Sequence record: PQ478073.1 | Source: a phage | Direction: 5' to 3' (one strand) | DNA: 64,000 nucleotides | Shown: piece after piece, positions 1 through 23,907 of the stretch | How positions within the stretch are numbered: position 1 is the first letter of the stretch | Layout of the letters: each line of letters starts with the position of its first letter | Made by a program: the position numbers and the translations under genes | Notes under the pieces: generated by a model | Seen by the model: the letters and a program-made list of their open reading frames with translations, nothing else | Told to the model about the DNA's origin: nothing | Databases searched by the model: none

Positions 1-3000
1 TTTAAAATCAGCTTTGTAATCTTCAGCAGCACTGTTTCCAAATAAAGGTAAGTACTCAGCACTATGCCAAATGATACTATCACTAATGACTATTTTTTGT
101 TCAACATCTTTGAACATATCTTTTAATTCAACCGATGTTGGTGGTTTAGGAATACTACCAACAGCATTATTTTTCAACCAAACGTCAACTTCAGTTTTAT
201 ATGAATTGGTTAATACATACATATCAATTAAGTTTGTTCTACTAGGATCAATGCGATTGTCGTCAGGTGCATAGTGTTTCCAATGGAAGTCTATACTAGT
301 ACGTGCATTAGTTTTAACAGTGTACTGTGAAGTAACATCTTTGTATCCATAATAATCTAGCTTCTGATTCTCGTCAGCATTAGTTCCCATGTTATTAATT
401 GCACGATAAAAAGCCAATTCAGGACTAACAGTGCCAGTATCATCGGAATAAGTTAAATTACTAATTAGTTGTCCCAAACGATCATTGTTATTGCCAACTG
501 TTTGTTCAATAAAATAATATTTACCATCATAGTTAAAACCAACTAAAAATCCAGAACCTTTACTATATAATCCACTCAATGTGGTTGAACGAATTGCGTT
601 ATTTCTAACAAATTCAGTTCTTTTATATGCATTCGGCTCTGCCAAAGCTTGTTCCATTGTATAAGACCACGATGAATCAAGAAGTGTGAAGGTATCATTT
701 GGTAACGACAGTACTGATATAGTGAAATCACTATTTTCCTGAAATACCAAAATACCACCATATTTTAATGCATCGGTTCCAGTCCAAGTAGGAACAATTT
801 CTTTAAATTGGTTTGGTTCCAATGGTATACCATTACTATCTACTTTCCTAGATGTAACAATAACACGAGAACCATCTAGATAGCCATTCTCTTGTTGAAT
901 TGTGTCATAAATTTGAAAATCTATATTACTTGTCAATCCTGAATTACTACTACTAGTAGTGTTAGATGATAAAATTTCAATCTTATCACTTTGAACTGTA
1001 CCAGTACTTATATCAGTAATTTTTTTAGATGATACAAAGTAAAATCTTACTTTTTCTCCACCCACAAAAATATATTCAATACCGTTAGCATCAAATTCCC
1101 AAGTTTCTGCTGTATATTTTACATTTATTATAATTAAAACTTCATTACCATTATACACAATAGTATCGTCATTAGTACTTGCTTCGATTGGAACCCATGA
1201 AGTTGTTTCTTTATCATGTACAATTACAAAATCGGTTTTTTTATCCAACATAGCAGAAATAGACTGAACTTCAACTGTGTTAAATCTAGTTCTATATGGT
1301 AATATGTACTCTATTGCTTGCATTCCACTAGGAACAGATGTGCTTAGTACATAAAAACCATTATCTAACACACTTACAACACTTGCCCATATCGTAGTAC
1401 CAGAATTAGAAAATTTAATAAGAGTACCTACCTGATACGAACCATACACTGTTCCAGACGAACCCAAAATTCTGCCATATGTATTGGTTGTGTAATTTGA
1501 ATTGTACACTGGAGTCCATGCTTGTTGTATTTCAATACCAATTGTATTGGATGGATACGCTTGATAACGTTGTATTACTGCATTTTCCCCAATCAATGGT
1601 TGAATATTGTCAATAACAATACTAGCATTTGTTTTTGTAGTTGGGAGCAATAACGATCTATTAAATTGCGTGTTTTCTTGATATAATGCACCATCATCAC
1701 TAAAAACGTCGGTATTCTGATACTTACCAGTAGGATCATTGATATCAATGAACCTTGATTGACCACTATAAATTCTATTAATAGCTTTAGATTTAAGTAC
1801 TGTATTTCCTAAACTAAGTGGTGCTATATTATAATCTTCACCATTGACAAAACGGTTTTGGGTATAGTACATTTGTGGTGCACGTGCTTTAATCTGCTCA
1901 ATAGTTTCAGCACTTTGTGCACGGTCGGACTCATATTGTAATGAAAAACGTATATCCAATGTACTAGATTCATAACTTGACTGTGTTTTTGTACGATATG
2001 TATATTTTACGCTTTTATTTTGAATTTCAGAAGTTTTAATGTTATATGTTTTACCATTACTAACACGATACCATACACGGAACGTCCCACGGGGAACAAC
2101 ACCACTTCTTGAGTCTGGGTACTTAATTGTTATTTGGTCTTTATCACGAGTAGTAACAGCAAAAATTGTTTTTAATTGACGATTAACAGTGTTATATGCA
2201 ATACTTTCCATTGATGGAACTTTTGTCCATTTGGTACGAACAATACCATCTTCATTTATTTCTTGAACCCATACATCAGTTTCGTTGATATTATCAACGT
2301 TAATATCTTGTATACGGTTCTCTTCACGGATAGCATATTGATAATCTTGATATGTTAATGTACCTTGTACGAAATATACAAAAAACCCAGTATTTGGTGA
2401 GCTAAATCCATTACCATCATTTTGATAAACAATATATTTTTGCTCTTGTGGTTCTGGATGTCGTTCTTCAACACCAACAGACGTAATGTCAGGATTCACT
2501 ACTTCAAATGTCATAGATTCACCATTGACAGTTGCAATAAATGGAATACTGGGTGCTGTCATTGGGATGGTGTTCATTCGATATAGTTGACGGGAGACAC
2601 CATTAACATCAATACGCTTGACTGGATTACCAAATTGGTTAGTACTGACAAATGAACTGTTCATTACTAGAATAAAGTTTTCATACCAGTTAGCATCCAT
2701 CGGGTCATTCCAACGAATAATTTTATCTTTTAATGATTCATTAAAACTATTACGAACATCTTGGTTTGTTTTAATTTCGGTTAATTTAGCAACTGCACGA
2801 CCTGGATATGAGCGGCGTGGTGAGTAAGAAATCATTTTAGCTAGTTTTAGTACTGATGCACGACGAGTTGCAGTATCTAAAAAGTTTTCACGTGTGTTCA
2901 AATCCATACGAAATGCCAAGTTCTGACCTAGCATAGAAATCGTATCTAAAATAAAAATAAACTGGTCGTTTTCGATCCAGTCATTGAATGAGTCTGGGTA

Positions 3001-3141
3001 AGTTGCACGTAGATAATCAATCATACTCTGACGGATAGTGTCGAAATCATAAGCTGTTAGATTGATTTTATAAAAACTTTCATATACTTGAGTCCAATCC
3101 TCACCAGCGTATAAATTTGATTGCCTTTTTTGTTGTGACAT
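1..3141 (-). CDS. large baseplate wedge protein, gp6/gpJ-like (partial; runs off window edge)
   Basis: Hand translation of minus strand from ATG at 3141 gives an uninterrupted frame of >1040 codons (MSQQKRQSNLYAGEDW...) to the window edge; follows spike-lysozyme-gp25 in conserved baseplate order. Confidence 0.5.
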   Translation of the reverse strand, partial: MSQQKRQSNLYAGEDWTQVYESFYKINLTAYDFDTIRQSMIDYLRATYPDSFNDWIENDQFIFILDTISMLGQNLAFRMDLNTRENFLDTATRRASVLKLAKMISYSPRRSYPGRAVAKLTEIKTNQDVRNSFNESLKDKIIRWNDPMDANWYENFILVMNSSFVSTNQFGNPVKRIDVNGVSRQLYRMNTIPMTAPSIPFIATVNGESMTFEVVNPDITSVGVEERHPEPQEQKYIVYQNDGNGFSSPNTGFFVYFVQGTLTYQDYQYAIREENRIQDINVDNINETDVWVQEINEDGIVRTKWTKVPSMESIAYNTVNRQLKTIFAVTTRDKDQITIKYPDSRSGVVPRGTFRVWYRVSNGKTYNIKTSEIQNKSVKYTYRTKTQSSYESSTLDIRFSLQYESDRAQSAETIEQIKARAPQMYYTQNRFVNGEDYNIAPLSLGNTVLKSKAINRIYSGQSRFIDINDPTGKYQNTDVFSDDGALYQENTQFNRSLLLPTTKTNASIVIDNIQPLIGENAVIQRYQAYPSNTIGIEIQQAWTPVYNSNYTTNTYGRILGSSGTVYGSYQVGTLIKFSNSGTTIWASVVSVLDNGFYVLSTSVPSGMQAIEYILPYRTRFNTVEVQSISAMLDKKTDFVIVHDKETTSWVPIEASTNDDTIVYNGNEVLIIINVKYTAETWEFDANGIEYIFVGGEKVRFYFVSSKKITDISTGTVQSDKIEILSSNTTSSSNSGLTSNIDFQIYDTIQQENGYLDGSRVIVTSRKVDSNGIPLEPNQFKEIVPTWTGTDALKYGGILVFQENSDFTISVLSLPNDTFTLLDSSWSYTMEQALAEPNAYKRTEFVRNNAIRSTTLSGLYSKGSGFLVGFNYDGKYYFIEQTVGNNNDRLGQLISNLTYSDDTGTVSPELAFYRAINNMGTNADENQKLDYYGYKDVTSQYTVKTNARTSIDFHWKHYAPDDNRIDPSRTNLIDMYVLTNSYKTEVDVWLKNNAVGSIPKPPTSVELKDMFKDVEQKIVISDSIIWHSAEYLPLFGNSAAEDYKADFK

Positions 3142-3206
3142 AATTTATTCCTTTAAATCAGTAAAGTACTAGTTCAGTACTGGGAATTATATATAGAAAT
3201 ATTTAT

Positions 3207-3238
3207 TCAAAAAGAAAAGCACTCCGAAGAGTGCTTTT
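3207..3238 (-). terminator. intrinsic terminator
   Basis: AGCACTC-cgaa-GAGTGCT hairpin with T-run on minus strand, after gp25-like gene. Confidence 0.55.
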
Positions 3239-3242
3239 ATAA

Positions 3243-3638
3243 TTATAAAGACGAAACTGAATATGTTGCCATTCGGTTATTACTTCTAGCATCAAATACA
3301 ATAGTAAGTTCTTCTAATGCATCTAATACTACATACTCTAATACGATGTTCATTTGATAACCATATTCTATTCTTGAAATTTGCAATTTCTTGAGATTCA
3401 ATCTTGGATCTAAGCTAATTATTCTACGGGCATCTGCTTCTAAAAGGTTGATAGTATTATAACCTTCTAGTTCAAATAACAAATCCCATGCAATAAAACC
3501 ATAGTCCGCATCAAATGCTCTTTCGCCTTTTTTTGTGTTAAAATGATTCATTAAATCTTGACGAACCAGTTCACTATCATACAATGTTTCGGTTCTACCC
3601 ACAACAGGAGTATGAAATCCTTTAAAAACAACTGCCAT
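3243..3638 (-). CDS. baseplate wedge subunit, gp25/GPW family
   Basis: 131 aa; TKKGERAFDADYG...LFE...PRL...IEY pattern matches recalled T4 gp25 (TRKGSRPFDPEFG...LFE...PRI); terminator just downstream. Confidence 0.7.
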   Translation of the reverse strand: MAVVFKGFHTPVVGRTETLYDSELVRQDLMNHFNTKKGERAFDADYGFIAWDLLFELEGYNTINLLEADARRIISLDPRLNLKKLQISRIEYGYQMNIVLEYVVLDALEELTIVFDARSNNRMATYSVSSL

Positions 3639-3652
3639 TGATTATTCCTTTA

Positions 3653-4141
3653 TTATACGGATTCAACGATACGTGCCATCTTTTCCGCTCTTGAAGTGGT
3701 TTGTTTATACCAAGTACTATCACGCATTTCTTTACCAGCAGTTTTGTAATCACCCTTACCCAAAGCAGTGAGTGCTTTTTTGAATTTCAAAACTTTGGTT
3801 TTGCCCATTTGGAATACCATTAACCATAATACACGTTGTACTTGGACTGGTGCGGTCATACCAAATTGTTCATAAATTGATTTTGCATCATTGTACGCAG
3901 TTTGTGCATCTTTAAGAAGAAGTTGGTCAGCTTGTGATTCAGTTAGTCCATTTTTGAAGTTTTCACCTGGAAGAACTAGATGACCATAACCAATAGTATC
4001 AAGACCTAAGCTGTCTTTATATACCCAAAACTTATCATTTTTAAAATAACCAAGTTTTTTCTGGTATGCAATTGTACCTTCAAATTCTTTTACTTCTTTG
4101 AAAAATTGCTCATCTGTATTTTTAATTTCCCATTTACTCAT
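3653..4141 (-). CDS. e: endolysin, T4 lysozyme-like (GH24)
   Basis: 162 aa; catalytic E...D...T triad context EFEGT...KDSLGLDTIGYGH; TATAAATA late box upstream on minus strand. Confidence 0.85.
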   Translation of the reverse strand: MSKWEIKNTDEQFFKEVKEFEGTIAYQKKLGYFKNDKFWVYKDSLGLDTIGYGHLVLPGENFKNGLTESQADQLLLKDAQTAYNDAKSIYEQFGMTAPVQVQRVLWLMVFQMGKTKVLKFKKALTALGKGDYKTAGKEMRDSTWYKQTTSRAEKMARIVESV

Positions 4142-4157
4142 AAAGATATCCTCGTTT

Positions 4158-4165
4158 TATTTATA
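4158..4165 (-). promoter_or_regulatory. T4-type late promoter box TATAAATA (endolysin)
   Basis: Exact TATAAATA on minus strand 17 nt upstream of ATG. Confidence 0.5.
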
Positions 4166-4177
4166 GTGCTAAAATAT

Positions 4178-6841
4178 TTATTGACATGCCTCCAAACGAC
4201 GAGCCATTAACTCCGCACGGCGGGTGGTTTGGCGATACCAAGCAGAATTGCGGATTTGTGCCGCTGCTTGTTTATAATTACCTTTTGCCATTTCTGATAA
4301 CATAGTTTTAAATTTCAATACACCACCTTTACCCATCTGAAATACCATTTGGCATAGTACTTGTTGAGCAAGATAAGGAGTTTTCATGTTATATGAAGCA
4401 TAAATTGATTTGGCATCATAAATTGCTTTACTACTATCACGAACTAACATATCATTTGCTTGTTGTTCAGTTATTCCATCAGAGAAGTTTTCACCGCTAA
4501 CAATTAAGTGACCGTAACCAATAGTTGGATATCCACGACTATCTAAATAACGCCAGAACTTACCATTACGATAATACCCCTTTGCTTGTTGATATTGTAA
4601 TGTACCCTCATATTCTTTTAATTCAGAAATAAACTGAGCATCACCAGGAACAACTTTCCAATCTATGGCTGTTTTATCAACATTACCTATATTATAAGTT
4701 GGTTGCTCAACTGGCGTAGTTGAAACACCACTTCTTTGTGTTCTTCTTCGACGAGGAACATGTCGTGAACCACGTTGTGAATAACCTGTACCAATTGTTT
4801 TAATTTTTGTAGTAACTACTAATTCATCACTATCAACAGAAGGTTGCACTACTGCTTGAGGTGCAGATTGATTGGTTGCTTTTCCTGCAATTAATGTTTT
4901 ATTGGCTGCGTCAGAACCAGTACCAGTTTGAGATGCATAAAATAGACCCGGATCAACTGAACCGCTAAAACCAAGCACGTTAGCTGATGTAACACGTATT
5001 TCAAACTGTATAACACCATTTGCTTTACCAACAACTTGGCCTTTTTGAACAACATCTTTGTTTAATAAATCAGATTGAATATTATAAAATACAGATTTAT
5101 ATCCTGACTTATGTTGTATTAACAGTGCACCATTAGTAATTACTATTACACCACCATCGGGTGCAACTATGTCACCTTTACATTGTATTTCCCATCCAGA
5201 ACGATCTGACTTCCCACCACTTTGTGTTGGAACACCTTTCCCCCAATAACCATATTGGCGAATAGTACCACTACATGGCATGAACATATGTAAACCTTCA
5301 TATGTAATACTATATCCAGTCATCCCAGGGTCAGATGTCATTAAATCTTGAGATTGCACTTGTTCAGTTTCTGATGTATAGTTAACAAACTGAACAGCTT
5401 CAGTGTCTTGTGCTACGGGTAATTCTGGTGATACATCATTTGCTGGTTGTGGTTGTACTGGTGATTCACTAGAACCACTTCCACCACCTTGTCTTGGTGG
5501 TTCAACATAACTACCATGATTTTCAGCGTTAACCCATGCAGCAATATCATGAATGTGTTCATTAAGACCAGCAGATGGTGTTCTAAAGTTTGGTGCAGTA
5601 AATTCAGCAGTACCGCTATTACCACCACTATTAACTGTTAATGTTTGACCACCACCACTAATAATTGCTGATGATGATCCAATTAGGTTTGCAGATGTTG
5701 CGGCAGAAATAGAAGCATTTGAACCAGCCGTAATATCAGTACTGCTACCACTTTGCATACGTAATGATGCAGCAGTAACTAAACGAAGGTCTGCCCCAGA
5801 ATTAACAACAACTTGTCCACCAACTTTTGCATCAAGAGCACCAATTAGATCTAATTTAGTATTTGCACCAACTCGTGCATTGAAATCTTGTCCGGTTTCA
5901 ATATTATATGAACGTCCAGCAGTAATATTAATATCTTGACCAGCACGAATATTAATATTCTTATCACAGTGCATGTCAATATCACCTTCACCAGTGAATT
6001 TTATACGTGCAGTGCCATCACGGTTAATTAAAAGAACATCACCAGTAGCTTCTGATAAAAGAAGTTGTGCACCACTACGTGTTTTTATTACGACACCTTC
6101 ATTTTTACGAGAACCAACACGTGTATCGTTTACTGGGTTATTAAATTGTGTATCTTGATATCCATCTGGGTCTTGATCCCACGTTGGTGCTGTTAATTCC
6201 TCTTCAGTATATCCATCATCAATAATAAAACTATTACCACGTGGCGAAGACATACCATATACAGTACTGGTGGTTTGTCGAGTACTACTACGATTCGCCA
6301 ACCCAGCTTCTTCGTCATATAAAAGGTTTTGCTTTTTAAGACCTGCGATAATTGGAACGTTAGCATATTTGTCTTGCATATCGGTAGTGATAGTGTTACG
6401 ATCATAGTCAGTAACAGGAAGTGGCATATCAGTTCCACCATAATTACTTACTTCAGTTGCCATGCCTGGAACCATAGTATTCATACGCTGGTCATATACA
6501 CAACCAATCCAATATGCTTGGAATGTACGGGCTTGTGCAAAAATTACAACAACTGTACACCCTACGTCTGGTGGTACTGCCCAAAAACCGTATCCTTTTG
6601 GATATTGACCATATGCATCAGCACTTGGAATACCTGGTGTTTTACCAGCAAAAGGAGACATGTAAGATGCTTCTATCCATGATTCTTTTGAGTTTTTATC
6701 ACTTTGAGAACCTTGTATCCAAACTTTCAGTTTTCCTGATTTAGTTGGATCTCTGTTATCCATAACAGTTGCTAACTGCGGATAAGATGGGTCAAAACGA
6801 CCCAACTGCTGTTGTGCATACTTTTTACTTGTATCTGCCAT
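4178..6841 (-). CDS. baseplate central spike, gp5-like, with beta-helix repeats, degenerate M23-like region and C-terminal T4-lysozyme domain
   Basis: 887 aa; N-terminal gp5/VgrG OB-fold-like segment (GFWAVPPDVGCTVVVIF...YWIGCVYD), G/S/T/N-rich repeat region, C-terminal EYEGT...DSRGYPTIGYGH ~50% identical to adjacent endolysin. Confidence 0.75.
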   Translation of the reverse strand: MADTSKKYAQQQLGRFDPSYPQLATVMDNRDPTKSGKLKVWIQGSQSDKNSKESWIEASYMSPFAGKTPGIPSADAYGQYPKGYGFWAVPPDVGCTVVVIFAQARTFQAYWIGCVYDQRMNTMVPGMATEVSNYGGTDMPLPVTDYDRNTITTDMQDKYANVPIIAGLKKQNLLYDEEAGLANRSSTRQTTSTVYGMSSPRGNSFIIDDGYTEEELTAPTWDQDPDGYQDTQFNNPVNDTRVGSRKNEGVVIKTRSGAQLLLSEATGDVLLINRDGTARIKFTGEGDIDMHCDKNINIRAGQDINITAGRSYNIETGQDFNARVGANTKLDLIGALDAKVGGQVVVNSGADLRLVTAASLRMQSGSSTDITAGSNASISAATSANLIGSSSAIISGGGQTLTVNSGGNSGTAEFTAPNFRTPSAGLNEHIHDIAAWVNAENHGSYVEPPRQGGGSGSSESPVQPQPANDVSPELPVAQDTEAVQFVNYTSETEQVQSQDLMTSDPGMTGYSITYEGLHMFMPCSGTIRQYGYWGKGVPTQSGGKSDRSGWEIQCKGDIVAPDGGVIVITNGALLIQHKSGYKSVFYNIQSDLLNKDVVQKGQVVGKANGVIQFEIRVTSANVLGFSGSVDPGLFYASQTGTGSDAANKTLIAGKATNQSAPQAVVQPSVDSDELVVTTKIKTIGTGYSQRGSRHVPRRRRTQRSGVSTTPVEQPTYNIGNVDKTAIDWKVVPGDAQFISELKEYEGTLQYQQAKGYYRNGKFWRYLDSRGYPTIGYGHLIVSGENFSDGITEQQANDMLVRDSSKAIYDAKSIYASYNMKTPYLAQQVLCQMVFQMGKGGVLKFKTMLSEMAKGNYKQAAAQIRNSAWYRQTTRRAELMARRLEACQ

Positions 6842-6854
6842 AATATTTTATTCC

Positions 6855-9104
6855 TTAATCAACTATACTATCGTGACGTTTAAGTGCACGAATTACAATT
6901 GCAGCTTGAATTTGTTGTGTAAAAGAACCACCTGCACCAAAATCATGAACAATTTTATTAACACGATAAATTGTTTGGTTAAATGTGGTTGGTGTATTAA
7001 TATCCAAAACACCAGTGTTATCATTTATTGATATTACTGGTTGTAATTTTAGTAATAGATACGCTTCAGATGTTATATAATTTGCTACATGATAATCATC
7101 TGGGTTAATTTCCATATCTTCACCATTAATTACTTGTTCTAGATATTGTAAGTAAGAGTAATCACTCCACCCTAACCAGTACGGGTCGCCTACTACACGC
7201 ATATCGAGTTTACACAAAAAAGGTCTATTGTAATAGTTGTCACGTATTTTACGTCTATCCATTTCATATGTGCTGCTGTTATCGTTTAACGAAGCGGATA
7301 AAGTTGTTTCATTGTTAGTTGCTTCGGTTGGCATTGTGAACACTTCACCATAACGGTGACCAACACCATCAGTACCGCCATCGTTTTCTTCATAAGTGGT
7401 TACATAATCTTCAATATATTGAGGTAAAACATTGACTTGATAGTTATTATAACGGTCTTGTTCTTCTGCGTTACCAACCTGCATTTGATTTTTTGCTAAA
7501 GTTTCAACTTCAGTTAACAATTGTTGTTGGGCTTGTGTTAACATCCCTCCTAAATCACGAGTTACACGTAAATCACTTGTTTTTGCCCATGCGTCTGGTA
7601 TACTATTGTATTGTACACCTTGAATATTGAGTTCTTGGGATGTATGTGTACCTGCATGGTTCGCTACATCTTGTATCGGACCAGGGTTACGTGTAGTGGC
7701 TACGAAAAATTGCTGATCAAATTTCAAATCCAAATCAAGTATCTCACTATTAAGCCCACTAAATTGATAATTATAAGTTTTCATGTTTATTTTTGGTTTT
7801 TGATCATTAGGATCTACGTATTTTTCTGCGTTCTCAAAAAAGTACTCAAATGTGAAATTTTCAGGTTGTAAATCCGATTCATGAACAATATCACCTATTT
7901 TAAATCTAACAATATAAAAAATTACTTTATAAACAGAAGTATTACGATAATTATCAAAACCAACGTATTGTTTAACTGGTATAATGTTTACAAATTGACG
8001 CACACTAGTACTATCATCGGCTTGTACAGTACATGTATCAATAACGTCATCAATAATTCGAGATATAGGAGTACTTGGGTTCCATGAAAAGTTTTTAGAA
8101 CCTTGTGCACCACTTTTAGTTGTTCCGGCCTCTGCCATTTGTTTAGAATCATAGTTTATAAACAAATCTTGCAAATCAGGTGCTACTTTAAATTCGAAAA
8201 ATTTACCTTCGGATAATTCACCAAATTTATATCTAAGATAACCATATTGTTGGTCAGCCATCTGATTTAATTTATCTTCTAAATCAAAGCAGAAGTCACC
8301 AAAGTTTTCAGCAGTACAATTGAATGGTTCTTTTAAGGTCCATTCAATGTTATCAACTAAAGCTGCTCTATTATGAACTAAGTTCATAGTATACATCATA
8401 GTACTACCACTTTGTGAAGCACTTGCAGTAACACTATTAATTTTAACTGACCAGCGTCTTGTTGTTTCTGGGATAATTTCAGGTATTCCATTTTTATTAA
8501 AGCCAATAAACTTTAATTCCAAGATCAATGGCAAGTCCATAAATTTATGATATCTAAGTTTGTTACTTAACGAAATTAATTCATCATATAGACTCATACT
8601 ATTATTTTCAGACATATTAAGTACTGCTGTATTAAAACAATAGTTTGTTGTCATTCCTGGTGTTGAAGGTCCAGCTTGTGTCATTTGTACACTAGTGATA
8701 TTATATTTGCCAGTAACACCACTTTCTGATATCACATGTCGTTGCACTTCTGCATCTGGGTAAAGCCAAAAGTTTTTAAAATCATCTTTATCTAAGGCAA
8801 ATAAACAAAAGTGCCAAGTTGGGTTATCATATTTCAATAATTTATTGTCATACGGTATTACAAACTGACTTAAATCGAGATCTTCATAAACTTGATCAAC
8901 ACTAGCACTTTGTTTTGGTAATGATACTACATTACTTACATTTGCTTTGTAATTATTTTTTGTAATAGTTTTTACATCATTTTGTAATGTATTTGCTGTA
9001 GCTTTCAAACTATCAAGTGCATTAGATGTGGTGGTTTTAGCCTTACCAGTAATACTTGTAATATCATTTTGAAAATTATCAACTGTACTTCGTAAATCTG
9101 CCAT
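6855..9104 (-). CDS. baseplate/tail structural protein (hub-associated?)
   Basis: 749-aa ORF immediately upstream of spike gene in minus-strand structural operon; no diagnostic motif recognised. Confidence 0.45.
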   Translation of the reverse strand: MADLRSTVDNFQNDITSITGKAKTTTSNALDSLKATANTLQNDVKTITKNNYKANVSNVVSLPKQSASVDQVYEDLDLSQFVIPYDNKLLKYDNPTWHFCLFALDKDDFKNFWLYPDAEVQRHVISESGVTGKYNITSVQMTQAGPSTPGMTTNYCFNTAVLNMSENNSMSLYDELISLSNKLRYHKFMDLPLILELKFIGFNKNGIPEIIPETTRRWSVKINSVTASASQSGSTMMYTMNLVHNRAALVDNIEWTLKEPFNCTAENFGDFCFDLEDKLNQMADQQYGYLRYKFGELSEGKFFEFKVAPDLQDLFINYDSKQMAEAGTTKSGAQGSKNFSWNPSTPISRIIDDVIDTCTVQADDSTSVRQFVNIIPVKQYVGFDNYRNTSVYKVIFYIVRFKIGDIVHESDLQPENFTFEYFFENAEKYVDPNDQKPKINMKTYNYQFSGLNSEILDLDLKFDQQFFVATTRNPGPIQDVANHAGTHTSQELNIQGVQYNSIPDAWAKTSDLRVTRDLGGMLTQAQQQLLTEVETLAKNQMQVGNAEEQDRYNNYQVNVLPQYIEDYVTTYEENDGGTDGVGHRYGEVFTMPTEATNNETTLSASLNDNSSTYEMDRRKIRDNYYNRPFLCKLDMRVVGDPYWLGWSDYSYLQYLEQVINGEDMEINPDDYHVANYITSEAYLLLKLQPVISINDNTGVLDINTPTTFNQTIYRVNKIVHDFGAGGSFTQQIQAAIVIRALKRHDSIVD

Positions 9105-9115
9105 ACGTTACTCCA

Positions 9116-9430
9116 TTAGCCTATGTTTCGAGTACCATTAAGATAATTCTGTACTCTTTGATTTGCTGGTATTCTAATTGTTACTCCACTTTTAAAATTA
9201 TATATAGGATCTTCTCCTAGTATGTCTGGATTTAACAATGCGAAAATATAATATAAGCGTTCATTACCATACATTTCGTATGCTAAACGCCAAGGTTGAT
9301 ATTCATATTTCAATGGGATCTCATAAAAATCATCAGTATCAGCCGGAACAATATCACGTGGTAAATTATACCCAAGATACCATGTTTGTTTCACCTTAGC
9401 GTAAGGTGAGTATTGACTATAGTTGGACAT
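9116..9430 (-). CDS. LysM-like baseplate protein (gp53/gpX-like)
   Basis: 104 aa; ERLYYIFALLNPDI...GVTIRIP resembles LysM fold pattern; start overlaps upstream gene stop. Confidence 0.4.
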   Translation of the reverse strand: MSNYSQYSPYAKVKQTWYLGYNLPRDIVPADTDDFYEIPLKYEYQPWRLAYEMYGNERLYYIFALLNPDILGEDPIYNFKSGVTIRIPANQRVQNYLNGTRNIG

Positions 9431-10251
9431 TAAATGAATCCTCCTTTACGTAATAGTTCACCACGTTTGAATGCATTGAGGTTGAACGTTTTAGTCATAT
9501 AATCCGATGTTGGTTGTTCTTCAAGTTGTAACATAACTGAGATTTTTTGTGGAACCCAAACTTCATCTTGTGGGTTCATATATCCAGTACTTCTAAGTTG
9601 TTCGAAGAATTTTCTACTATCCATGTCGGATAAATTAAAAGTACTATCGCTACTATTCAACGGAACTTGAATATAAGAAACATCATTTGGGTAAGTAAAA
9701 TTATAAGATTTTAAAATAACAGGAATATCATTATATGTATAACGACCATATCCACTTAGAAGTAAGATTGGTGGTGGTGCACCTGCAATTGCGAGTTCGG
9801 GGTTATTAGCCGAAGCAGCTTGTCTACCAAAATCCATCAACGAAACAGAACGTATAAAATGAACACATGCCAACGCATACATAGCTTCTGCTGCTGTATT
9901 CGCATAAAATTCACCCTGAATCGTGAAAACTGTATTAGTAGTGTTCTTATAGTTGTTATAGTTACTGTTAGTATGTATAGGGGACTGTGTTTCATACTGA
10001 ATTGACCTTTGTTCAGTAATTGTTGGTGTTACAGTCCAAACCAACCCATTAGTTGGACGCAGAAACGAAAGTAGAGTTGGTTCGGAGCTATCTCCAAAAT
10101 CACCATATACATAGTTAGCACCTGCGGCTTTAGGTCGTAATCGAATTCTACGATCAATCATCTTTTTGATTCTCCATAATAAGGGAACATTTGATGTATT
10201 TATACGTGGGACAAACTGCTTTTTGGTGCTATAATAACATTGATGGTACAA
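9430..10251 (-). CDS. hypothetical baseplate/tail protein
   Basis: 273-aa ORF at head of minus-strand baseplate operon; true start may be an internal Met. Confidence 0.45.
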   Translation of the reverse strand: MYHQCYYSTKKQFVPRINTSNVPLLWRIKKMIDRRIRLRPKAAGANYVYGDFGDSSEPTLLSFLRPTNGLVWTVTPTITEQRSIQYETQSPIHTNSNYNNYKNTTNTVFTIQGEFYANTAAEAMYALACVHFIRSVSLMDFGRQAASANNPELAIAGAPPPILLLSGYGRYTYNDIPVILKSYNFTYPNDVSYIQVPLNSSDSTFNLSDMDSRKFFEQLRSTGYMNPQDEVWVPQKISVMLQLEEQPTSDYMTKTFNLNAFKRGELLRKGGFI

Positions 10252-11132: not shown

Positions 11133-12150
11133 TAAAGCAATTACATTCACTGATATTCATTTAGGTTTAAAGAATAACAGCAAGCAACACAATGAAGATT
11201 GTTTAAACTTCATTAAATTCATGATTGAGGTAGCTAAAAAAAATAATATCAAAGTTTGTGTTTTTATGGGAGATTATTTTCATAATAGAAGTAATATCAA
11301 TATCCAAACACTAAACTATGGTTTACAAATTCTTCAATTATTAAATGATAATTTTGAAAAAGTATATTTTTTAGTAGGCAACCATGATATGTATCATAAA
11401 AACAAACGTGATATAACAAGTATCAATATGGCTCAAGTTTATGAAAATATAGAATTCATTAATGAAATTACAACATTTGATGATTGTACTTTCATTCCAT
11501 TTATGATTGAAGATGAATATAAGTTGTTACCTCAACTAAAAAGTAAGTATGTTTTTGGTCACTTAGAGTTACCAGGTTACTTGCTTAACAAGATGGTAGA
11601 AATGCCTGATCATGGAAAAGAAACAGAAGGTTCTTTTGGTGGTTGTGAGTATGTTTTTAGTGGACATTTTCATAAAAGGCAGTCAAAAACAACTTCAAAA
11701 GGAACTCGTGTAGTTTATACTGGTAATTGTTTTCCACATAATTTTTCCGATACATGGGATGATGCAAGAGGTGTAATGATCCTTGAACATGGTAAAGAAC
11801 CTATTTTCAAATCATGGGAACATGCACCAAAATATAGAACATTTACACTTTCAGAATTGTTAACTGATCCTGGTTATTATCTTCAAGATAATACAATATC
11901 AAAAGTTCAAGTTGATATATCAATAACAACAGATGAGATTAGTTTTATTCGTGATACATTTACTAAACTTTACAACATTAGAGAGTTTAATGTTGTAACG
12001 AGCAAGCAAAGTATCGCAGAATTAATTGAAGATGGTGTTAGTTTTGAAAGTACTGAATCAGTTGATGAGATTGTGTTGCAGCAAATTATGGAAATTGACT
12101 CACCCATGTTTGATAAAAATCTTCTAATCCAAATTTACAGATCGTTATAA
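11113..12150 (+). CDS. 47: recombination endonuclease subunit, Mre11/SbcD-like (gp47)
   Basis: Calcineurin-like phosphoesterase motifs FTDIHLG, MGDYFH, GNHD, GHLE, SGHFH. Confidence 0.85.
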   Translation: MKMALFDKAITFTDIHLGLKNNSKQHNEDCLNFIKFMIEVAKKNNIKVCVFMGDYFHNRSNINIQTLNYGLQILQLLNDNFEKVYFLVGNHDMYHKNKRDITSINMAQVYENIEFINEITTFDDCTFIPFMIEDEYKLLPQLKSKYVFGHLELPGYLLNKMVEMPDHGKETEGSFGGCEYVFSGHFHKRQSKTTSKGTRVVYTGNCFPHNFSDTWDDARGVMILEHGKEPIFKSWEHAPKYRTFTLSELLTDPGYYLQDNTISKVQVDISITTDEISFIRDTFTKLYNIREFNVVTSKQSIAELIEDGVSFESTESVDEIVLQQIMEIDSPMFDKNLLIQIYRSL

Positions 12151-14846: not shown

Positions 14847-14854
14847 TATTTATA
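14847..14854 (-). promoter_or_regulatory. late promoter box TATAAATA (EndoVII-like gene)
   Basis: Exact TATAAATA on minus strand 30 nt upstream of ATG at 14816. Confidence 0.5.
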
Positions 14855-16732: not shown

Positions 16733-16740
16733 TATTTATA
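16733..16740 (-). promoter_or_regulatory. late promoter box TATAAATA (zinc-ribbon late gene)
   Basis: Exact TATAAATA on minus strand 35 nt upstream of ATG at 16698. Confidence 0.5.
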
Positions 16741-16828: not shown

Positions 16829-19033
16829 ATGGCTGGAAATACAAGTGATTACCTACTCCAGCAGTTGGTTAATCAAACTAAAGATAACAACGATAGTTTG
16901 AGTGCTATACGTGAGTTATTGGCTGAAAATATAAAAAATGATAGAAAGAAATCCGGTTCTAAAAGTGGAAAACGTAATGGAAGTAATTCATCAAGTTCTG
17001 GAAACCGTGGCTCTCGAACAAATAACAAAGCTGATGATGGTAAAGAATTTGGAAAAATATTCAAATCATTATCATCTGAAGTATCGAATGTCGGCAAAAC
17101 TATGATGAGTACGTCTGCAAACGTTAGCAATGTTGTAAACTCACTAGGAATGAGTGCATCTTCATTTGCTGGTTCATTAGCAATGATCCCAGGTCCAGTT
17201 GGTGCAGCAGCATCTGCATTCAAATTGGTTGCTGACGCTGGTTTAGCAGTTTATAATGTGTTAAATGCACAGCTTGAAGTTTATAATAGAATAAACAGTG
17301 CTGGTGTCGCTCTATCTGAAGGTTACGGCTCCATATTAAAAGGTGCTGGTGCATCAATGATGAGTATTGATGCATTTGGTGAAGCATTACAAACTCATAG
17401 TGCCGTTGTTGCACAATTAGATGGTGCATATGGTGATGGTGTTTCTACATTTGGTAAATTATTGGGTACTGTGCAACAAGCACAAAATCAATTAGGTTTA
17501 TATGGTGTTTCTCAAAAAACATTAACTGATTTAACTGCACGTAATATTAAATTCCAAAAGCAATTTGGTGGAAGAGAAATGTTACGTAGTATGGATCAAG
17601 CAAAAAGTACTGAACAGTTTATCATGAGTATGACTAAGTTCAGTAAAAGTATGGGTGAGTCAGTTGATGCACTATTAAATAAAACACAAAACTTAGATAA
17701 ATCATTAGACACACGTTCAATGCAAATCGCATTACAAAACTATTCTGGATTATCTAGTAAAGCAGCAGTTGCAACATCAAAAGCATTTAACGAAGCTGCT
17801 GCCAGTATGGGTGATGCTGGTGCAGATTTTCTACGTTTAATTTCACATCGTTTAACTATTGGTGGAGTACCAGATGATTTATTGACTCCAGTACTGAACC
17901 AATTTGCTGATTTAGGTGAGAACTTGGTACGTAGTGGTGTTACTGATTCACAAGAAATTCGCCGTCAACAATTGGAATTTGTTAAAAAGAACAAAGAACT
18001 AATAAAGCAAGATTTATTAAATCAGATACAATTAGGAAACACTACGGCAGCAACCTTCAACCAACAACTACTTGATATGGAAGCTGCGATTAATGATCCT
18101 AAGAGTCAACCAGCAGATAAACTAACACAATTCACTGATAGATTCAATAGATGGATTAGTAAAGAATTTACTGAACCATTTAATAAAATGTATGCAGATA
18201 CACAAAATTCTATTGCGGATTACCTTACTGATATTGCAGACCGTACTGATGGTGCATGGGAATTTATCGGAGAGTTAGCACTTGATGGTTTTGGTTTGGT
18301 TCCTATTGCGAAAGATGCAGTTGCGTATTTGGATAGGATTGGTGGTGAGTTTGAGCAGTGGTTAGAAGGGTTAGGTACTGAAATTTTTGGTAGTGGATAT
18401 AATAAAGTTTCAGAAGCATTTGATAGCTTTATGAATAACCTAATGGATCTTCCTGGTAAACTTTGGGATTCTGTTAAAGGTTGGTTTGGTGGATCAGACG
18501 ACAAAGTAAAAGTAGAAAACAATTCTGTTACCGATGGTGCAGAAAAAGTTAATAATTATTTTGAAGAAAAAATGAATTCATTTGGTGATTATATTTCTAG
18601 TTCATTTGATGGTTTTTTAAAATGGAATTCAAGTAGAAACTTTAAACAACCAAAACCCCTTGATGAATCAGTTGCTGAAAAACTTATTAGTAGTGGTCTT
18701 GAAAATAAGCCAAGAGCAACTGCGAGAATCGAAAAATCTGAACATGTTGCACCATATGTTACCATAACTCCAAAAACTTTTGATAAATCAGCATGGGGTC
18801 CAAATGAACCACCAATTCAAGCTGAACCGGACGATTATGAGGCCATGAAAGCGATGATAAATAGTGGTAGTAGTATGGCAAATGCTAATAATAATGCCAC
18901 AATATCAGAAGACATGAAAGAGTTACTTAAAAAACTTGCTGATGTTAATGAGCAATCTCTATCTGCCGTGCAACAGACAAATAACTATCTAAGAACTATC
19001 TCTGAAAACACTCAAGGTGAGAGAAACAGTTAA
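16829..19033 (+). CDS. virion structural protein (tape-measure-like or internal protein?)
   Basis: 734 aa; low-complexity S/G/N-rich N-terminus and Ala-rich helical segments; immediately precedes portal gene. Confidence 0.5.
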   Translation: MAGNTSDYLLQQLVNQTKDNNDSLSAIRELLAENIKNDRKKSGSKSGKRNGSNSSSSGNRGSRTNNKADDGKEFGKIFKSLSSEVSNVGKTMMSTSANVSNVVNSLGMSASSFAGSLAMIPGPVGAAASAFKLVADAGLAVYNVLNAQLEVYNRINSAGVALSEGYGSILKGAGASMMSIDAFGEALQTHSAVVAQLDGAYGDGVSTFGKLLGTVQQAQNQLGLYGVSQKTLTDLTARNIKFQKQFGGREMLRSMDQAKSTEQFIMSMTKFSKSMGESVDALLNKTQNLDKSLDTRSMQIALQNYSGLSSKAAVATSKAFNEAAASMGDAGADFLRLISHRLTIGGVPDDLLTPVLNQFADLGENLVRSGVTDSQEIRRQQLEFVKKNKELIKQDLLNQIQLGNTTAATFNQQLLDMEAAINDPKSQPADKLTQFTDRFNRWISKEFTEPFNKMYADTQNSIADYLTDIADRTDGAWEFIGELALDGFGLVPIAKDAVAYLDRIGGEFEQWLEGLGTEIFGSGYNKVSEAFDSFMNNLMDLPGKLWDSVKGWFGGSDDKVKVENNSVTDGAEKVNNYFEEKMNSFGDYISSSFDGFLKWNSSRNFKQPKPLDESVAEKLISSGLENKPRATARIEKSEHVAPYVTITPKTFDKSAWGPNEPPIQAEPDDYEAMKAMINSGSSMANANNNATISEDMKELLKKLADVNEQSLSAVQQTNNYLRTISENTQGERNS

Positions 19034-19044
19034 GGACGAAAATA

Positions 19045-20784
19045 ATGAGTTGGAAACGACATATGACAGTGGGAAGGTCTAAACTATCGACCATCCCAAA
19101 TCAGTCCAGTAATAGCAATAAATCAACAGGAACGAAAACAAATTTCGCTTCCTATCTTCCTGTTGTATATAATGGATTGGCAAACCGTACTGAGCGTTAT
19201 AGTCAGTATGAGCAAATGGACCAAGATCCTGAAATTAGAACTGCATTGAATATAATTGCTGACTTTTGTACCCAAAGTACTGAAGATTTTGGTTTACCAT
19301 ATAAAATCAAATATAAAGATGACATTGGTGATACTGAAGTAACGACTATTGAAGATCGTTTAGATGCATGGACTGAACAAAATGATTTTAAAACACGAAT
19401 GTATGAAATTGTGCGTGGTCTTCTGAAATATGGTGATCAATTTTTCATTCGAGATCCAGAAACATTCGATTGGTATTGGGTAAGCCCCAAAAATGTTGAG
19501 CAAGTATTTGTTAACGAAGCCACTGGTAAAACACCAGTAATTTATTATATACGTGACGTATCATTAAATTTGAAAGATAAAGTTTTTAGTAACCTTCAAG
19601 TAGGATTTGATAAAACCGCTTATCCAGGAGCTATTCCGACAACAATGGGTGGCGGTGGTTCAGTAGCTGCGGGTGGTGCATCTGGTTTTACAAGTCAAGG
19701 AAATACTGCTGACCCATTCAGTACTAACGGTCAATTAGACGTTATTCCTGTTGGTGCAGAACACGTAATTCATCTAACGCTAAATACAGGACAAGATGGG
19801 GTATGGCCTTTTGGTACTAGTATACTTGAGGACGTATTTAAAGTCTATAAGCAAAAAGAACTTCTGGAAGATAGTATCATAATTTATCGTGTACAACGTG
19901 CACCTGAGCGTCGTGTATTTAAAATTGATGTTGGTGATATGCAAGCACACCAAGCGATGGCTTATGTTGAAAGATTTAAAAATGAAATCCACCAGCGTAG
20001 AATACCTTCAAACAAAGGTGGAAGTACTTCATTAATGGATGCAGCATATAATCCATTAAGCATTTTAGAAGACTACTTTTTCCCACAAACTTCTGAAGGT
20101 CGTGGTTCAGATGTTCAAACATTACCAGGCGGTGATAACTTAGGACAAATTGATGACTTACGTTATTTTAATAATAAATTGATTCGTGGTCTTCAAATAC
20201 CAGCTTCTTATCTACCACAAGGTCCAGATGATGGTGGTGTTTCATTATTTGGTGATGGTGCTACACAAGCTATGGCAAGTGAATTGCGATTCAATAATCA
20301 ATGTATGCGTTATCAACGTTTAGTTGCAAAACATTTTGATGCTGAATTCAAAAGATTTATGGTTAAAAATGGATATAACATTAGTACTTCATCTTTTGAA
20401 GTTATTATGAATCCACCTATTAACTTAGCTTCTTATCGTAAAGCTGAACTAGATGCTAAACTAATTAATACATATCTTCCTCTTAATGACTTGCCTTATA
20501 TGGCGAAACAAACAATTCTTGAAAAAATGGGCTTTTCTAAAGCTGATATTGTTAAGAATGAACAAATGTGGTTACAAGAGAATCCACAAGATGGTTCCCA
20601 ACCTTCTGGTGGTGAAGAAGATTCCGCTGGATTACAGTCTGTTGGTATTGATGCTCCAAATGATCCTGGAATGGATCTTGGTATTGATGGAGAAGGTAAT
20701 TTGGAAAGTGCTGATGCCGAATACCAAGAGCAACAGAGTGGAAGTGGTGGTTTCAACCCTAATAATTTAGGCAATTCTTTTTAA
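19045..20784 (+). CDS. 20: portal vertex protein (gp20-like)
   Basis: 579 aa; position directly upstream of core proteins, protease, scaffold and capsid genes as in T4; no catalytic motif to verify. Confidence 0.55.
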   Translation: MSWKRHMTVGRSKLSTIPNQSSNSNKSTGTKTNFASYLPVVYNGLANRTERYSQYEQMDQDPEIRTALNIIADFCTQSTEDFGLPYKIKYKDDIGDTEVTTIEDRLDAWTEQNDFKTRMYEIVRGLLKYGDQFFIRDPETFDWYWVSPKNVEQVFVNEATGKTPVIYYIRDVSLNLKDKVFSNLQVGFDKTAYPGAIPTTMGGGGSVAAGGASGFTSQGNTADPFSTNGQLDVIPVGAEHVIHLTLNTGQDGVWPFGTSILEDVFKVYKQKELLEDSIIIYRVQRAPERRVFKIDVGDMQAHQAMAYVERFKNEIHQRRIPSNKGGSTSLMDAAYNPLSILEDYFFPQTSEGRGSDVQTLPGGDNLGQIDDLRYFNNKLIRGLQIPASYLPQGPDDGGVSLFGDGATQAMASELRFNNQCMRYQRLVAKHFDAEFKRFMVKNGYNISTSSFEVIMNPPINLASYRKAELDAKLINTYLPLNDLPYMAKQTILEKMGFSKADIVKNEQMWLQENPQDGSQPSGGEEDSAGLQSVGIDAPNDPGMDLGIDGEGNLESADAEYQEQQSGSGGFNPNNLGNSF

Positions 20785-22689: not shown

Positions 22690-22697
22690 ATATAAAT
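22690..22697 (+). promoter_or_regulatory. late promoter box TATAAATA (scaffold gene)
   Basis: Exact TATAAATA ~50 nt upstream of ATG; overlaps 9-bp palindrome. Confidence 0.5.
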
Positions 22698-22745
22698 ATC
22701 TGTATGTTGAAGTACAGATATTTCAGTACTTAAAGGAGAGAACGA

Positions 22746-23861
22746 ATGTCTAAATTAGAAAAGCTTCTAAAAGAATCATCTCTTTCTGATGAGGCAAAAC
22801 AGCTAATTCAGGAAGCATGGAATGAAGAAAAGAATACACTAGCCGCAGAGATGCGTGAAGAAATGAAAGGCCGTTATCAGCAAGATTTGGCTGAACTAAC
22901 CGAAGGTTTGAACACTATGGTTACTCAAGTCATTGCTGAAGAAATGGGTGCTGTATATGAAGAGAAAAAACGTCTCGTTGAAGATCGTGTAACTCTACGT
23001 AAAACACTAAGCAATTTCTCTGCGTTTTCAAACTCTGTTTTGGCTGAAGAAGTTAAACAAATGCGTAAAGAACGTAAGCATCTTCATGAATGCATGGGTA
23101 AATTCGTTAATTTTTCTAACGGTATCCTAGCAGAAGAGCTAAAAGAATTCCACACTGAAAAACGTCAACTAGTTGAAACTCGCGTTAAACTACTTGCTGA
23201 AGGTTCACGTCAAATTGCTGAAGCTCGTAATAACTTCATCAAACGTACATCTGAAAGTGCTGCTAAATATATTGCAGAAACCACTCAGAAGAATCTATAT
23301 GCGTTGAAACAAGATCTAGTGGAAGCAAAACAAAATATGTTTGGTCGTAAAATCTTTGAAGCATTTGCTCAAGAGTTTAATGTCAAACAATTTAATGAAA
23401 ACTCATTGCTACGTTCCCTAACTGAATCAATTAAATCTAAAGAAGATGAAATTGCTCAAGTTAAGCAAGAACTACATGAAACTGCTAATGCCGTTAAAGC
23501 TGCTAAAACCAAACTACGTATTATGGAAGATGCACAAGCACGTAATGCGATTATGTCTGAACTAGTAAAACCACTAACTGCACAGCAAAAACAAATTATG
23601 GAATCCCTTCTAGCTACTTCACCTACTGAAAAGCTTAAAGAAGATTTCAGCAAGTACCATAAGTCAGTACTTAACGGTACTAAAGTAAATGAATCTGCTA
23701 CCACTCGTCAAGCAGTTCAGTCTTCCGCTAAGAAAACTCTTGCAGAAGGTAAAGTAATCACTGGCAACCGTCAGGCTATTGTTGAAAGCGAAGAAATGAC
23801 CGCTGACGATATGGCATTCCTAAAAGAACTCGATGTTCTTTCAGGTATCAATAAAAAATAA
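22746..23861 (+). CDS. 22: prohead scaffold protein (gp22-like)
   Basis: 371 aa, charged and helical; TATAAATA box at 22690; immediately upstream of capsid gene. Confidence 0.55.
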   Translation: MSKLEKLLKESSLSDEAKQLIQEAWNEEKNTLAAEMREEMKGRYQQDLAELTEGLNTMVTQVIAEEMGAVYEEKKRLVEDRVTLRKTLSNFSAFSNSVLAEEVKQMRKERKHLHECMGKFVNFSNGILAEELKEFHTEKRQLVETRVKLLAEGSRQIAEARNNFIKRTSESAAKYIAETTQKNLYALKQDLVEAKQNMFGRKIFEAFAQEFNVKQFNENSLLRSLTESIKSKEDEIAQVKQELHETANAVKAAKTKLRIMEDAQARNAIMSELVKPLTAQQKQIMESLLATSPTEKLKEDFSKYHKSVLNGTKVNESATTRQAVQSSAKKTLAEGKVITGNRQAIVESEEMTADDMAFLKELDVLSGINKK

Positions 23862-23899: not shown

Positions 23900-23907
23900 T
23901 ATAAATA
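23900..23907 (+). promoter_or_regulatory. late promoter box TATAAATA (major capsid gene)
   Basis: Exact TATAAATA within conserved TAAATAATATCATAC motif, 46 nt upstream of ATG. Confidence 0.55.

Follow-up and report, generated by a model that had tools for sequence, protein, structure and literature searches.

A jumbo-phage baseplate spike with a degenerate LytM domain and a C-terminal lysozyme, encoded beside a free lysozyme paralogue

Results and discussion

The spike locus and its relatives

We analyzed a 64 000-nt stretch of phage DNA (sequence record PQ478073.1), subsequently named the window, which shows 98.6% nucleotide identity to Escherichia phage 121Q (Asteriusvirus) over genes 585–588. 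The phage is a RaK2/121Q-type jumbo myophage of E. coli. Three co-oriented genes on the minus strand make up the core of the locus. The central baseplate spike or tail lysozyme of 887 aa (4178..6841), assigned via its open reading frame and the identity to 121Q, is followed by a free soluble GH24 lysozyme of 162 aa (3653..4141), assigned via its reading frame, its Pfam match and its paralogy to the spike end, and by a gp25-like baseplate wedge protein (3243..3638; Pfam GPW_gp25, 34.8 bits). The latter is the last gene of the unit, and a terminator-like hairpin with a T-run is located directly 3′ of it (3215..3238, minus strand). A preliminary description of this DNA, made from the letters alone, had already delimited the spike and the lysozyme reading frame in the same way.

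A T4-type late promoter box, TATAAATA (4158..4165, minus strand), lies 16 nt upstream of the ATG of the free lysozyme gene. A second TATAAATA box (10197..10204, minus strand) precedes the upstream baseplate genes: it is located 34 nt in front of an ATG matching the start of 121Q gp590 and heads the genes for a gp590-like protein, a gp53-like protein, a 749-aa protein and the spike. Six of the eight copies of the box in the window are found 16–47 nt upstream of a gene start on the same strand; a scan for sigma-70 promoters yielded background level only and was uninformative. The 749-aa virion protein encoded upstream of the spike matched neither a Pfam family nor a PDB sequence.

Orthologues of the spike are 121Q gp587, RaK2 gp078, CBB_240 and phAPEC6 gp241, and those of the 162-aa protein are 121Q gp586, CBB_239 and LysUE1. 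In 121Q an HNH endonuclease gene is found beside gp25, which the window's phage does not carry; otherwise nothing substantive differs between the two. The wider RaK2-like spikes (GAP32, Yersinia fHe-Yen9-03, Erwinia pEa_SNUABM_50 and Xanthomonas XaC1) are 52–59% identical, of equal length and of equal domain order. All related loci keep the order gp53-like, 749-aa virion protein, spike, lysozyme, gp25 and gp6-like, apart from the free lysozyme itself, which is absent from locus P0076 and from the clade-B loci (see below). The spike is thus accompanied by gp53-like, gp25-like and gp6-like baseplate genes, as expected for a central spike, and its orthologues were found in virions of phAPEC6 and CBB by mass spectrometry (PMC7247149, PMC5259590).

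The N-terminal half of the spike

The N-terminus bears a Phage_base_V OB domain (residues 23–116; 6494..6775, minus strand), which a domain HMM scan detects above the cut-off (PF04717, 29.8 bits versus 23.8) and which bears out the gp5/VgrG-like OB-fold of the preliminary description. The proposed beta-helix-like repeats were recovered as well: approximately 18 octapeptides with an 8-residue register read from the sequence occupy residues 271–414 (5600..6031, minus strand). Pfam reports a DUF2345/VgrG-type repeat match at 34.9 bits (cut-off 30.7) that is shared with VgrG needles, and a Gp5_trimer_C match was seen in relatives. With an N-terminal OB-fold and repeats able to form a triple-stranded beta-helix, the protein belongs to the gp5/gpV/VgrG superfamily, and the octapeptides would be predicted to build such a helical needle.

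Directly after the putative helix the chain carries an HxH motif (H429-I-H431; 5549..5557, minus strand) that is invariant in 87/87 aligned spikes. We regard it as a candidate for the metal ‘histidine cage’ of an apex or of a clamp of the trimer, a meaning drawn from work on P2 gpV (bioRxiv 10.1101/2023.02.25.529910). At residue 429 of 887 it is positioned mid-chain rather than near the C-terminus, which is atypical for an apex domain; its function might be limited to clamping the trimer, as in tail fibres. The trimer and the apex geometry of the spike are likewise inferred, and the AF2 model is that of a monomer.

The C-terminal lysozyme and the origin of the free copy

The extreme C-terminus is formed by a complete GH24 (T4-type) lysozyme (residues 725–887; 4181..4669, minus strand), as the preliminary description had it. 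Pfam Phage_lysozyme (PF00959) matches residues 765–882 with an E-value of 2.3e-11 (44.5 bits, cut-off 22.3), and the catalytic residues E745, D767 and T773 correspond to T4L E11/D20/T26; E745 and D767 are each kept in 86/87 spikes. The domain has a T4-lysozyme fold and represents an active-looking muramidase. It would be delivered at the spike tip. It is preceded by a linker motif (residues ∼671–700; 4742..4831, minus strand) with the consensus ELVVxTxVxSIGSGYSQRGSRxVPRR in the alignment, in which V675 and G691 are invariant and several further positions at least 90% conserved; pLDDT is low just downstream of it.

The 162-aa reading frame matches the same Pfam family (E 1.1e-9, 39.2 bits versus 22.3) and carries the same triad, its E, D and T being part of ‘EFEG’, ‘YKD’ and ‘TIGYGH’, respectively. 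It is 53% identical to spike residues 728–886 (159 aa, E 2e-58), in agreement with the ∼50% estimated before. Compared to T4L, both copies contain an insertion of ∼13 residues between Glu and Asp. An N-terminal extension of ∼10 residues with an invariant Trp is furthermore common to all 74 free copies and all 87 copies on spikes, whereas 35–41 of 46 bacterial homologues show gaps across its columns and none of the 46 has the Trp. No third GH24 copy was found within the window; its counterpart in 121Q, gp532, is located outside the window.

Which of the two copies is the older one? The preliminary description had proposed that the neighbouring gene is the phage endolysin, a duplicate of which became joined to the spike end. 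The two genes are indeed clearly paralogous neighbours with a common orientation, and fusions of lytic domains to spike C-termini have occurred repeatedly: outgroup spike homologues carry other cargo at this position, either unrelated GH24 subtypes (18–25% identity, without the Glu–Asp insertion) or GH19. In vitro, the purified 162-aa orthologue LysUE1 also acts as Gram-negative endolysins typically do (PMC12805682), and the 162-aa protein has not been seen in virions. However, the distribution of the two copies speaks against an endolysin as donor. In the spike tree two deep clades, A and B, are each recovered with 100% bootstrap, and the GH24 domain is part of the spike in both of them, whereas the free gene is confined to one. 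It is present in the window/121Q, P0073, P0077 and P0078 loci and absent from P0076, P0079, P0080, P0084 and P0086, i.e. from P0076 and the four clade-B loci examined. Moreover, the spike domain of the clade-A crown is on average closer to the free copy (48.4% mean identity) than to the clade-B spike domains (43.2%), the reverse of what would be expected if the fusion had predated the clade split. The gene is also part of the baseplate operon instead of being grouped with lysis genes, and the endolysin candidate put forward in the literature is a TM-LysM-GH24 protein. An endolysin origin of the spike domain is therefore disfavoured, and we consider it rather unlikely.

Phylogeny of the lysozymes themselves did not decide the matter. 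Neighbour-joining trees of GH24, built from 163 columns with 209 and then 59–74 taxa and with T4 lysozyme as root, left the relationship of spike, free and bacterial copies unresolved with bootstraps of 0–26% at the key splits. Our reading of the direction of duplication is therefore based on synteny, mean identities and an indel. The outgroup spikes P0094 and P0115 failed as a root of the lysozyme tree because their GH24 domains are of different subfamilies. With a root between clades A and B, presence and absence of the free gene are weakly polarized (2 events versus 3). Gene conversion between the adjacent paralogues gave no signal (50.9% identity within the same genome versus 49.2% across genomes). 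Since a deep sister clade has the domain on its spikes but lacks the free gene, a tandem copy is likelier than a donor. We infer that the 3′ end of the spike gene was probably duplicated in tandem within one subclade and thereby gave rise to the free gene.

The role of the free lysozyme

The 162-aa protein lacks a signal peptide and has no TM segment. Over its first 21 nt the gene matches the gene-specific portion of the LysUE1 forward primer without a difference, and LysUE1, purified in 2025, was muralytic in turbidity and CFU assays (PMC12805682). However, in these phages a separate protein with TM, LysM and GH24 parts is the predicted endolysin (121Q gp532; PMC5259590), and gp532 as well as gp511, annotated as an Rz-like spanin, are encoded ∼60–70 kb away from the small lysozyme gene in 121Q. 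Near the 162-aa gene neither a holin nor a spanin was found. We know of no holin for these phages. With its baseplate-operon setting, no holin or spanin nearby and gp532 predicted in its place, the naming of the neighbour as free endolysin is not supported. The free enzyme would most likely act from inside the cell at lysis, alongside the TM-LysM-GH24 candidate.

The location of the gene would also fit another role. With the spike gene on one side and the gp25 gene on the other, both in its orientation, it is located inside the late baseplate operon and upstream of the terminator they share, so that its product could be virion-borne, for example docked on the spike, and delivered at infection. 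The degenerate LytM groove described below might serve as docking site, as such a groove docks lysozyme-fold autolysins in DipM, and the lysozyme part of T4 gp5 is a separate polypeptide after cleavage. However, the protein was undetected in the virion proteomes of phAPEC6 and RaK2-like phages in which the spike was detected, which is weak evidence for a 19-kDa protein since gp25 was also missed in phAPEC6. Furthermore, the spike already has a GH24 domain of its own, and clade-B phages and P0076 do without the free gene. A virion-borne role of the free lysozyme thus appears improbable.

A conserved LytM domain without its metal site

Between the HxH motif and the linker the spike contains a degenerate domain of the LytM/M23 fold (residues ∼511–654; 4880..5311, minus strand), identified by profiles, an AF2 model and the alignment. 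The window's own domain is matched by Pfam M23 (PF01551) below the gathering cut-off (E 3.2e-4, 21.3 bits versus 28.7), whereas the family as a whole is recognized in 27/29 members with a best E-value of 6.4e-11. In a profile search of the PDB the full-length alignment was swamped by T4-lysozyme entries; with a trimmed alignment the family profile matched the sequences of LasA, SpoIIQ, DipM and EnvC. The AF2 model of the monomer (pLDDT 88.8) resembles LytM domains, and its nearest structures are non-catalytic LytM factors.

The M23 ligands are lost. In the window's spike the HxxxD motif is replaced by R547/E551, the catalytic His by N587-I588 and the HxH motif by V610/Q612. The full set is complete in none of 87 aligned homologues: 71 sequences have R and 5 have H at position 547, 50 have I and 2 have D at position 551, and none carries a His at the catalytic-His or HxH positions. 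Other residues are kept instead, namely W550 and R616 in 87/87 and H577 and E614 in 86/87. Lacking the zinc ligands and the catalytic His and scoring below the PF01551 cut-off, the domain does not qualify as an active M23 metallopeptidase but as a LytM fold with a lost metal site, and we regard it as non-catalytic on the basis of the alignment; the preliminary description had suspected the same.

Being degenerate family-wide yet strongly conserved, the domain points to a binding or regulatory role. By analogy it would most likely bind peptidoglycan or regulate the attached muramidase. In PrgK of the pCF10 T4SS a degenerate LytM domain down-regulates its own muramidase, both being located in one polypeptide within an envelope-crossing machine, as in the spike. 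The degenerate LytM groove of DipM docks lysozyme-fold autolysins, and DipM activates the lytic transglycosylase SdpA and AmiC. The amidase activators EnvC and NlpD as well as DipM, PrgK and SpoIIQ resemble the phage domain in having lost the Zn site and conserved the groove, and EnvC, DipM and SpoIIQ are among its best structural or profile matches. However, these factors are cellular or plasmid proteins whereas the phage domain is part of a virion spike, for which a partner would be expected by precedent. A more specific version, in which the dead domain is an EnvC/DipM-like activator delivered to the periplasm that switches on host amidases or lytic transglycosylases, or gates the tethered muramidase, is conceivable by the same analogy and in our opinion quite improbable.

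The strong conservation could alternatively indicate an active endopeptidase that employs non-canonical residues; the spike would then combine two enzymes, as phi29 gp13 does. Active M23 domains are indeed common in phage tail and hub proteins. The loss of the canonical set in all homologues and the non-catalytic nearest structures contradict this, and to our knowledge every characterized M23 peptidase needs its Zn site (MEROPS family M23). We consider such an activity highly improbable.

Finally, the idea that the two reading frames result from faulty assembly or annotation, such as the mis-joining of a repeat, is refuted and nothing was found in its favour: the pair of spike and free lysozyme recurs in 36 independently sequenced phage genomes (records each covering at least 80% of the region) and on many metagenomic contigs, and as the copies are only 53% identical a collapse or duplication by the assembler is excluded.

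Proposed function and comparison to known systems

Given the observed domain identities, ligand loss, paralogy, promoter and synteny pattern, we consider it likely, taken together, that the locus encodes a trimeric cell-puncturing spike with LytM and GH24 cargo and a soluble paralogue copied from the spike end. The OB-fold would seat the spike on the baseplate hub, the octapeptide repeats would form the beta-helical needle, and the HxH motif would close or clamp this needle with a metal ion. The chain would then continue as tethered cargo, the non-catalytic LytM domain being followed by the GH24 muramidase. Upon sheath contraction the spike would cross the outer membrane, and its lysozyme would cut glycan strands locally so that the tail tube could pass the peptidoglycan. 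The degenerate LytM domain would not cut; it may bind peptidoglycan or regulate the muramidase, as PrgK, DipM and EnvC suggest. The soluble paralogue has a late promoter of its own and would work from inside the cell at lysis.

T4 is the obvious reference. Its gp5 and gene e endolysin comprise an OB-fold, an octapeptide beta-helix and a spike GH24 domain as found here, and a free GH24 paralogue (∼43% identity) is encoded elsewhere in the genome. However, in T4-type gp5 the lysozyme is inserted between OB-fold and helix (residues 185–328 of 576 in a solved T4-like spike), i.e. mid-chain as the preliminary description had pointed out, whereas it follows the helix, the HxH motif and the LytM domain in the 887-aa spike, which therefore departs from the strict gp5 architecture. 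T4 furthermore uses a separate PAAR protein as needle tip and has no LytM domain. P2 gpV and phi92 gp138, with an Fe-containing HxH apex, show the same order of OB-fold, beta-helix and HxH, but there the apex ends the chain while ∼455 residues follow it here. The logic of tethering a peptidoglycan-degrading enzyme to the C-terminus of a needle is also known from evolved VgrGs of type VI secretion systems such as Vibrio cholerae VgrG-3; these contain a fused gp27-like domain and are part of a secretion system rather than a virion. The tail-knob protein gp13 of phi29 resembles the spike in combining lysozyme-type and M23-type domains in the virion, but its M23 domain is active and C-terminal, and it is not a gp5-type spike.

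The domain order, called unusual in the preliminary description, is so only in comparison to T4. It is not new: it was published in 2013 for RaK2 gp078 and in 2017 for CBB_240, including the M23 domain in the centre and the paralogy of the lysozymes (PMC5259590), and it recurs in distant spike homologues that bear other lytic cargo at the C-terminus. The genes, domain order, M23 domain and lysozyme paralogy have thus been described before, and purification of the small enzyme is published as well. The new part is modest and consists of the family-wide degeneracy of the LytM domain and the invariant mid-chain HxH motif, neither of which is noted in the RaK2-like literature; a search of the literature for phage central spikes with a LytM domain found nothing.

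As a discovery the locus carries little weight. What is mainly useful is the conserved dead LytM domain, together with the view of the C-terminus of this spike class as a swappable cargo slot that accommodates different GH24 subtypes or GH19, analogous to the evolved VgrGs. If the dead domain should turn out to act as an activator of host enzymes, the phage would open the cell wall partly by hijacking the autolysin control of its host.

Gene order of the baseplate region

The 887-aa spike is encoded at 4178–6841 (minus strand) within a block of baseplate genes on the same strand (3243–10251). This block also contains genes for a 244/273-aa virion protein, a gp53-like protein (9116–9430), a 749-aa virion protein (6855–9104), the free 162-aa lysozyme (3653–4141) and a gp25-like protein (3243–3638). 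The region is 98.6% identical to genes 585–588 of Escherichia phage 121Q (Asteriusvirus) and is covered to at least 80% in 36 phage records (Escherichia, Salmonella, Erwinia and Serratia phages). As the gene pair recurs in this way, an assembly artefact, considered in the preliminary description, was ruled out. The 749-aa protein directly upstream of the spike is kept in every related locus (678–884 aa); searches of Pfam and of PDB sequences gave no match for it, and judged by its position it could be a gp27-like hub partner of the spike.

A 766-bp HNH endonuclease gene of 121Q (gp584) is absent from the phage studied here (junction at 3156–3186, corresponding to 11178–11945 of the 121Q stretch L001). 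In 121Q it separates the gp6-like gene from the gp25-like gene and carries the record note ‘associated with group I intron’. Exactly at the junction, identity to 121Q drops from 99.3% (1–3156) to 92.4% (3186–4200), as would be expected if markers had been exchanged around a homing endonuclease.

Architecture of the spike

Pfam assigned a Phage_base_V OB-fold (residues 23–116) and VgrG-type DUF2345 repeats, both over the cut-off. Residues 271–414 comprise ∼18 uninterrupted 8-residue repeats, the same register as in the β-helix of T4 gp5C. Directly behind them lies H429-x-H431, invariant in 87/87 aligned homologues. The apex of P2 gpV-type spikes holds a histidine cage that binds Fe and is built from three HxH motifs, and trimeric fibres are also clamped by HxH cages (bioRxiv 10.1101/2023.02.25.529910). 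Here the motif sits mid-chain, and by analogy it is a probable apex or trimer clamp. The overall architecture is the same in all 86 full-length homologues (36–93% identity).

The preliminary description of an M23-like region lacking metal ligands proved correct for the LytM domain (residues ∼511–654), because the canonical ligand and catalytic positions are substituted throughout the 87 aligned homologues. The HxxxD positions are R547 (R in 71/87) and E551 (D in 2/87), the catalytic histidine is replaced by D, G or N, and the HxH positions of the zinc site are occupied by V/I/T and E/Q/T. Other residues of the domain are nearly fixed: W550 and R616 in 87/87, H577 and E614 in 86/87. Loss of the active site is a property of the whole spike family. 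The linker to the lysozyme domain is variable except at residues 671–700 (4742–4831, minus strand), where ELVVxTxVxSIGSGYSQRGSRxVPRR, with a basic run behind it, forms a strongly conserved motif that may serve as a site of processing or docking.

This arrangement is already known. The orthologue RaK2 gp078 (886 aa), with a β-helix between unknown regions and a C-terminal lysozyme, was ranked among the largest lysozymes of the baseplate and credited ‘with a very unusual domain composition’, and three lysozyme paralogues were listed for RaK2 (PMC3622015, 2013). For phage CBB, a triplet of gp25-like protein, T4-type lysozyme and a protein with OB-fold, central M23 (E 6.5e-4) and C-terminal lysozyme was described; of the three, the paper counts just the gp25-like protein and the spike as confirmed in virions (PMC5259590, 2017).

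The free lysozyme and its expression

The GH24 enzyme of 162 aa is soluble and has its catalytic triad intact; its sequence contains no signal or TM segment, and it shares 53% identity with spike residues 728–886 (E 2e-58). The ATG of its gene is preceded, at a distance of 16 nt, by a TATAAATA box (4158–4165, minus strand), which matches the consensus of T4 late promoters. The 8 copies in the window are not above chance in number, but their placement stands out, as 6/8 lie 16–47 nt upstream of gene starts on the same strand. The other five precede the baseplate operon (10197–10204), endonuclease VII (14847–14854) and a baseplate hub gene (16733–16740), all on the minus strand, and the ORFs at 22746 and 23953 (22691–22698 and 23900–23907, plus strand). 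The phage encodes a gp55-like late sigma factor, and the six boxes fit T4-type late promoters that it would recognise. Together, the predicted promoter and this factor suggest that the free lysozyme is expressed independently of the spike. A hairpin after the gp25-like gene ends the unit.

The purified 162-aa orthologue LysUE1 of phage UE-S1 lyses E. coli, and EDTA strengthens this effect (PMC12805682); in its gene-specific part, the LysUE1 forward primer equals the first 21 nt of the free lysozyme gene. In phAPEC6 proteomics the spike was found and the small lysozyme was not (PMC7247149). The endolysin predicted for CBB is a different protein, CBB_187 (121Q gp532), with N-terminal TM segment, LysM-like and lysozyme domains (PMC5259590). 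We found in 121Q gp532 (18192–19118 of the 121Q stretch L003, outside the window) a hydrophobic N-terminal segment, LysM and a GH24 domain with intact triad; this third GH24 paralogue of the phage shares 32–34% identity with the others. About 9 kb upstream of gp532 is gp511, annotated as an Rz-like spanin. As the free lysozyme has neither export signal nor virion signal, its putative role is most likely at lysis, either alongside the TM-LysM-GH24 protein or in its place.

Origin of the two lysozymes

A tree of the non-lysozyme part of the spike (residues 1–700) separates clade A (the RaK2-like crown and P0076–78) from clade B (P0079–86) with 100% bootstrap each; GH24 trees gave no resolution. 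Gene order is otherwise constant across related loci, but the free lysozyme between spike and gp25 varies: it is present in the window and 121Q, P0073, P0077 and P0078, and absent from P0076 and 4/4 clade-B loci examined. Mean identity is 48.4% between free copy and crown spike domain, 43.2% between crown and clade-B spike domains and 42.4% between free copy and clade-B domain. Free (74/74) and spike (87/87) copies share an N-terminal extension of ∼10 residues with an invariant Trp, whose columns are gapped in 35–41 of 46 bacterial homologues of 145–150 aa (Trp in 0/46). The free gene lies immediately 3′ of the lysozyme-coding end of the spike gene. Synteny, identities, extension, timing and gene position combined make it reasonably probable that the free gene is a tandem duplicate of the spike 3′ end that arose in clade A. 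The same evidence disfavors the opposite direction given in the preliminary description, duplication of the free lysozyme and fusion onto the spike, which we consider rather unlikely; the observation there was accurate, the interpretation right only in part. Since spike-to-free identities within and across genomes can be taken as equal (50.9% versus 49.2%) and spike–spike and free–free distances co-vary (r 0.73), the sequences indicate that a single old duplication took place and that gene conversion is not ongoing.

The bacterial homologues (P0192–P0237) form a family of GH24 proteins and lie on large contigs (up to 508 kb) of Pantoea, Erwinia, Kluyvera, Yersinia and E. coli. At 42–53% identity they are about as close to the free lysozyme as the spike domain is, and they share the Glu-Asp insertion of the spike and free copies.

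Distant spike homologues from uncultured phages (P0099, P0107, P0110, P0094, P0115) keep the OB-fold and β-helix module and carry a different muralytic cargo at the C-terminus, GH19 chitinase-like or unrelated GH24 subtypes, which shows that fusion at this position took place repeatedly. The spike C-terminus thus behaves like a slot for interchangeable cargo. A design with ‘helix then enzyme’ order recurs, also in evolved VgrGs.

Proposed function

The virion spike carries a dead LytM and an intact GH24 domain at its C-terminal end, and a separately transcribed gene encodes an active GH24 paralogue, with activity seen in LysUE1. After contraction, the tethered GH24 domain would digest peptidoglycan locally; the free enzyme would act at lysis. 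The LytM domain may bind peptidoglycan or regulate a hydrolase. As precedents, PrgK down-regulates its own muramidase through its degenerate LytM, the groove of the degenerate LytM of DipM activates a lytic transglycosylase and AmiC, and EnvC is a further published case. The function of this conserved degenerate domain is the only lead with some novelty.
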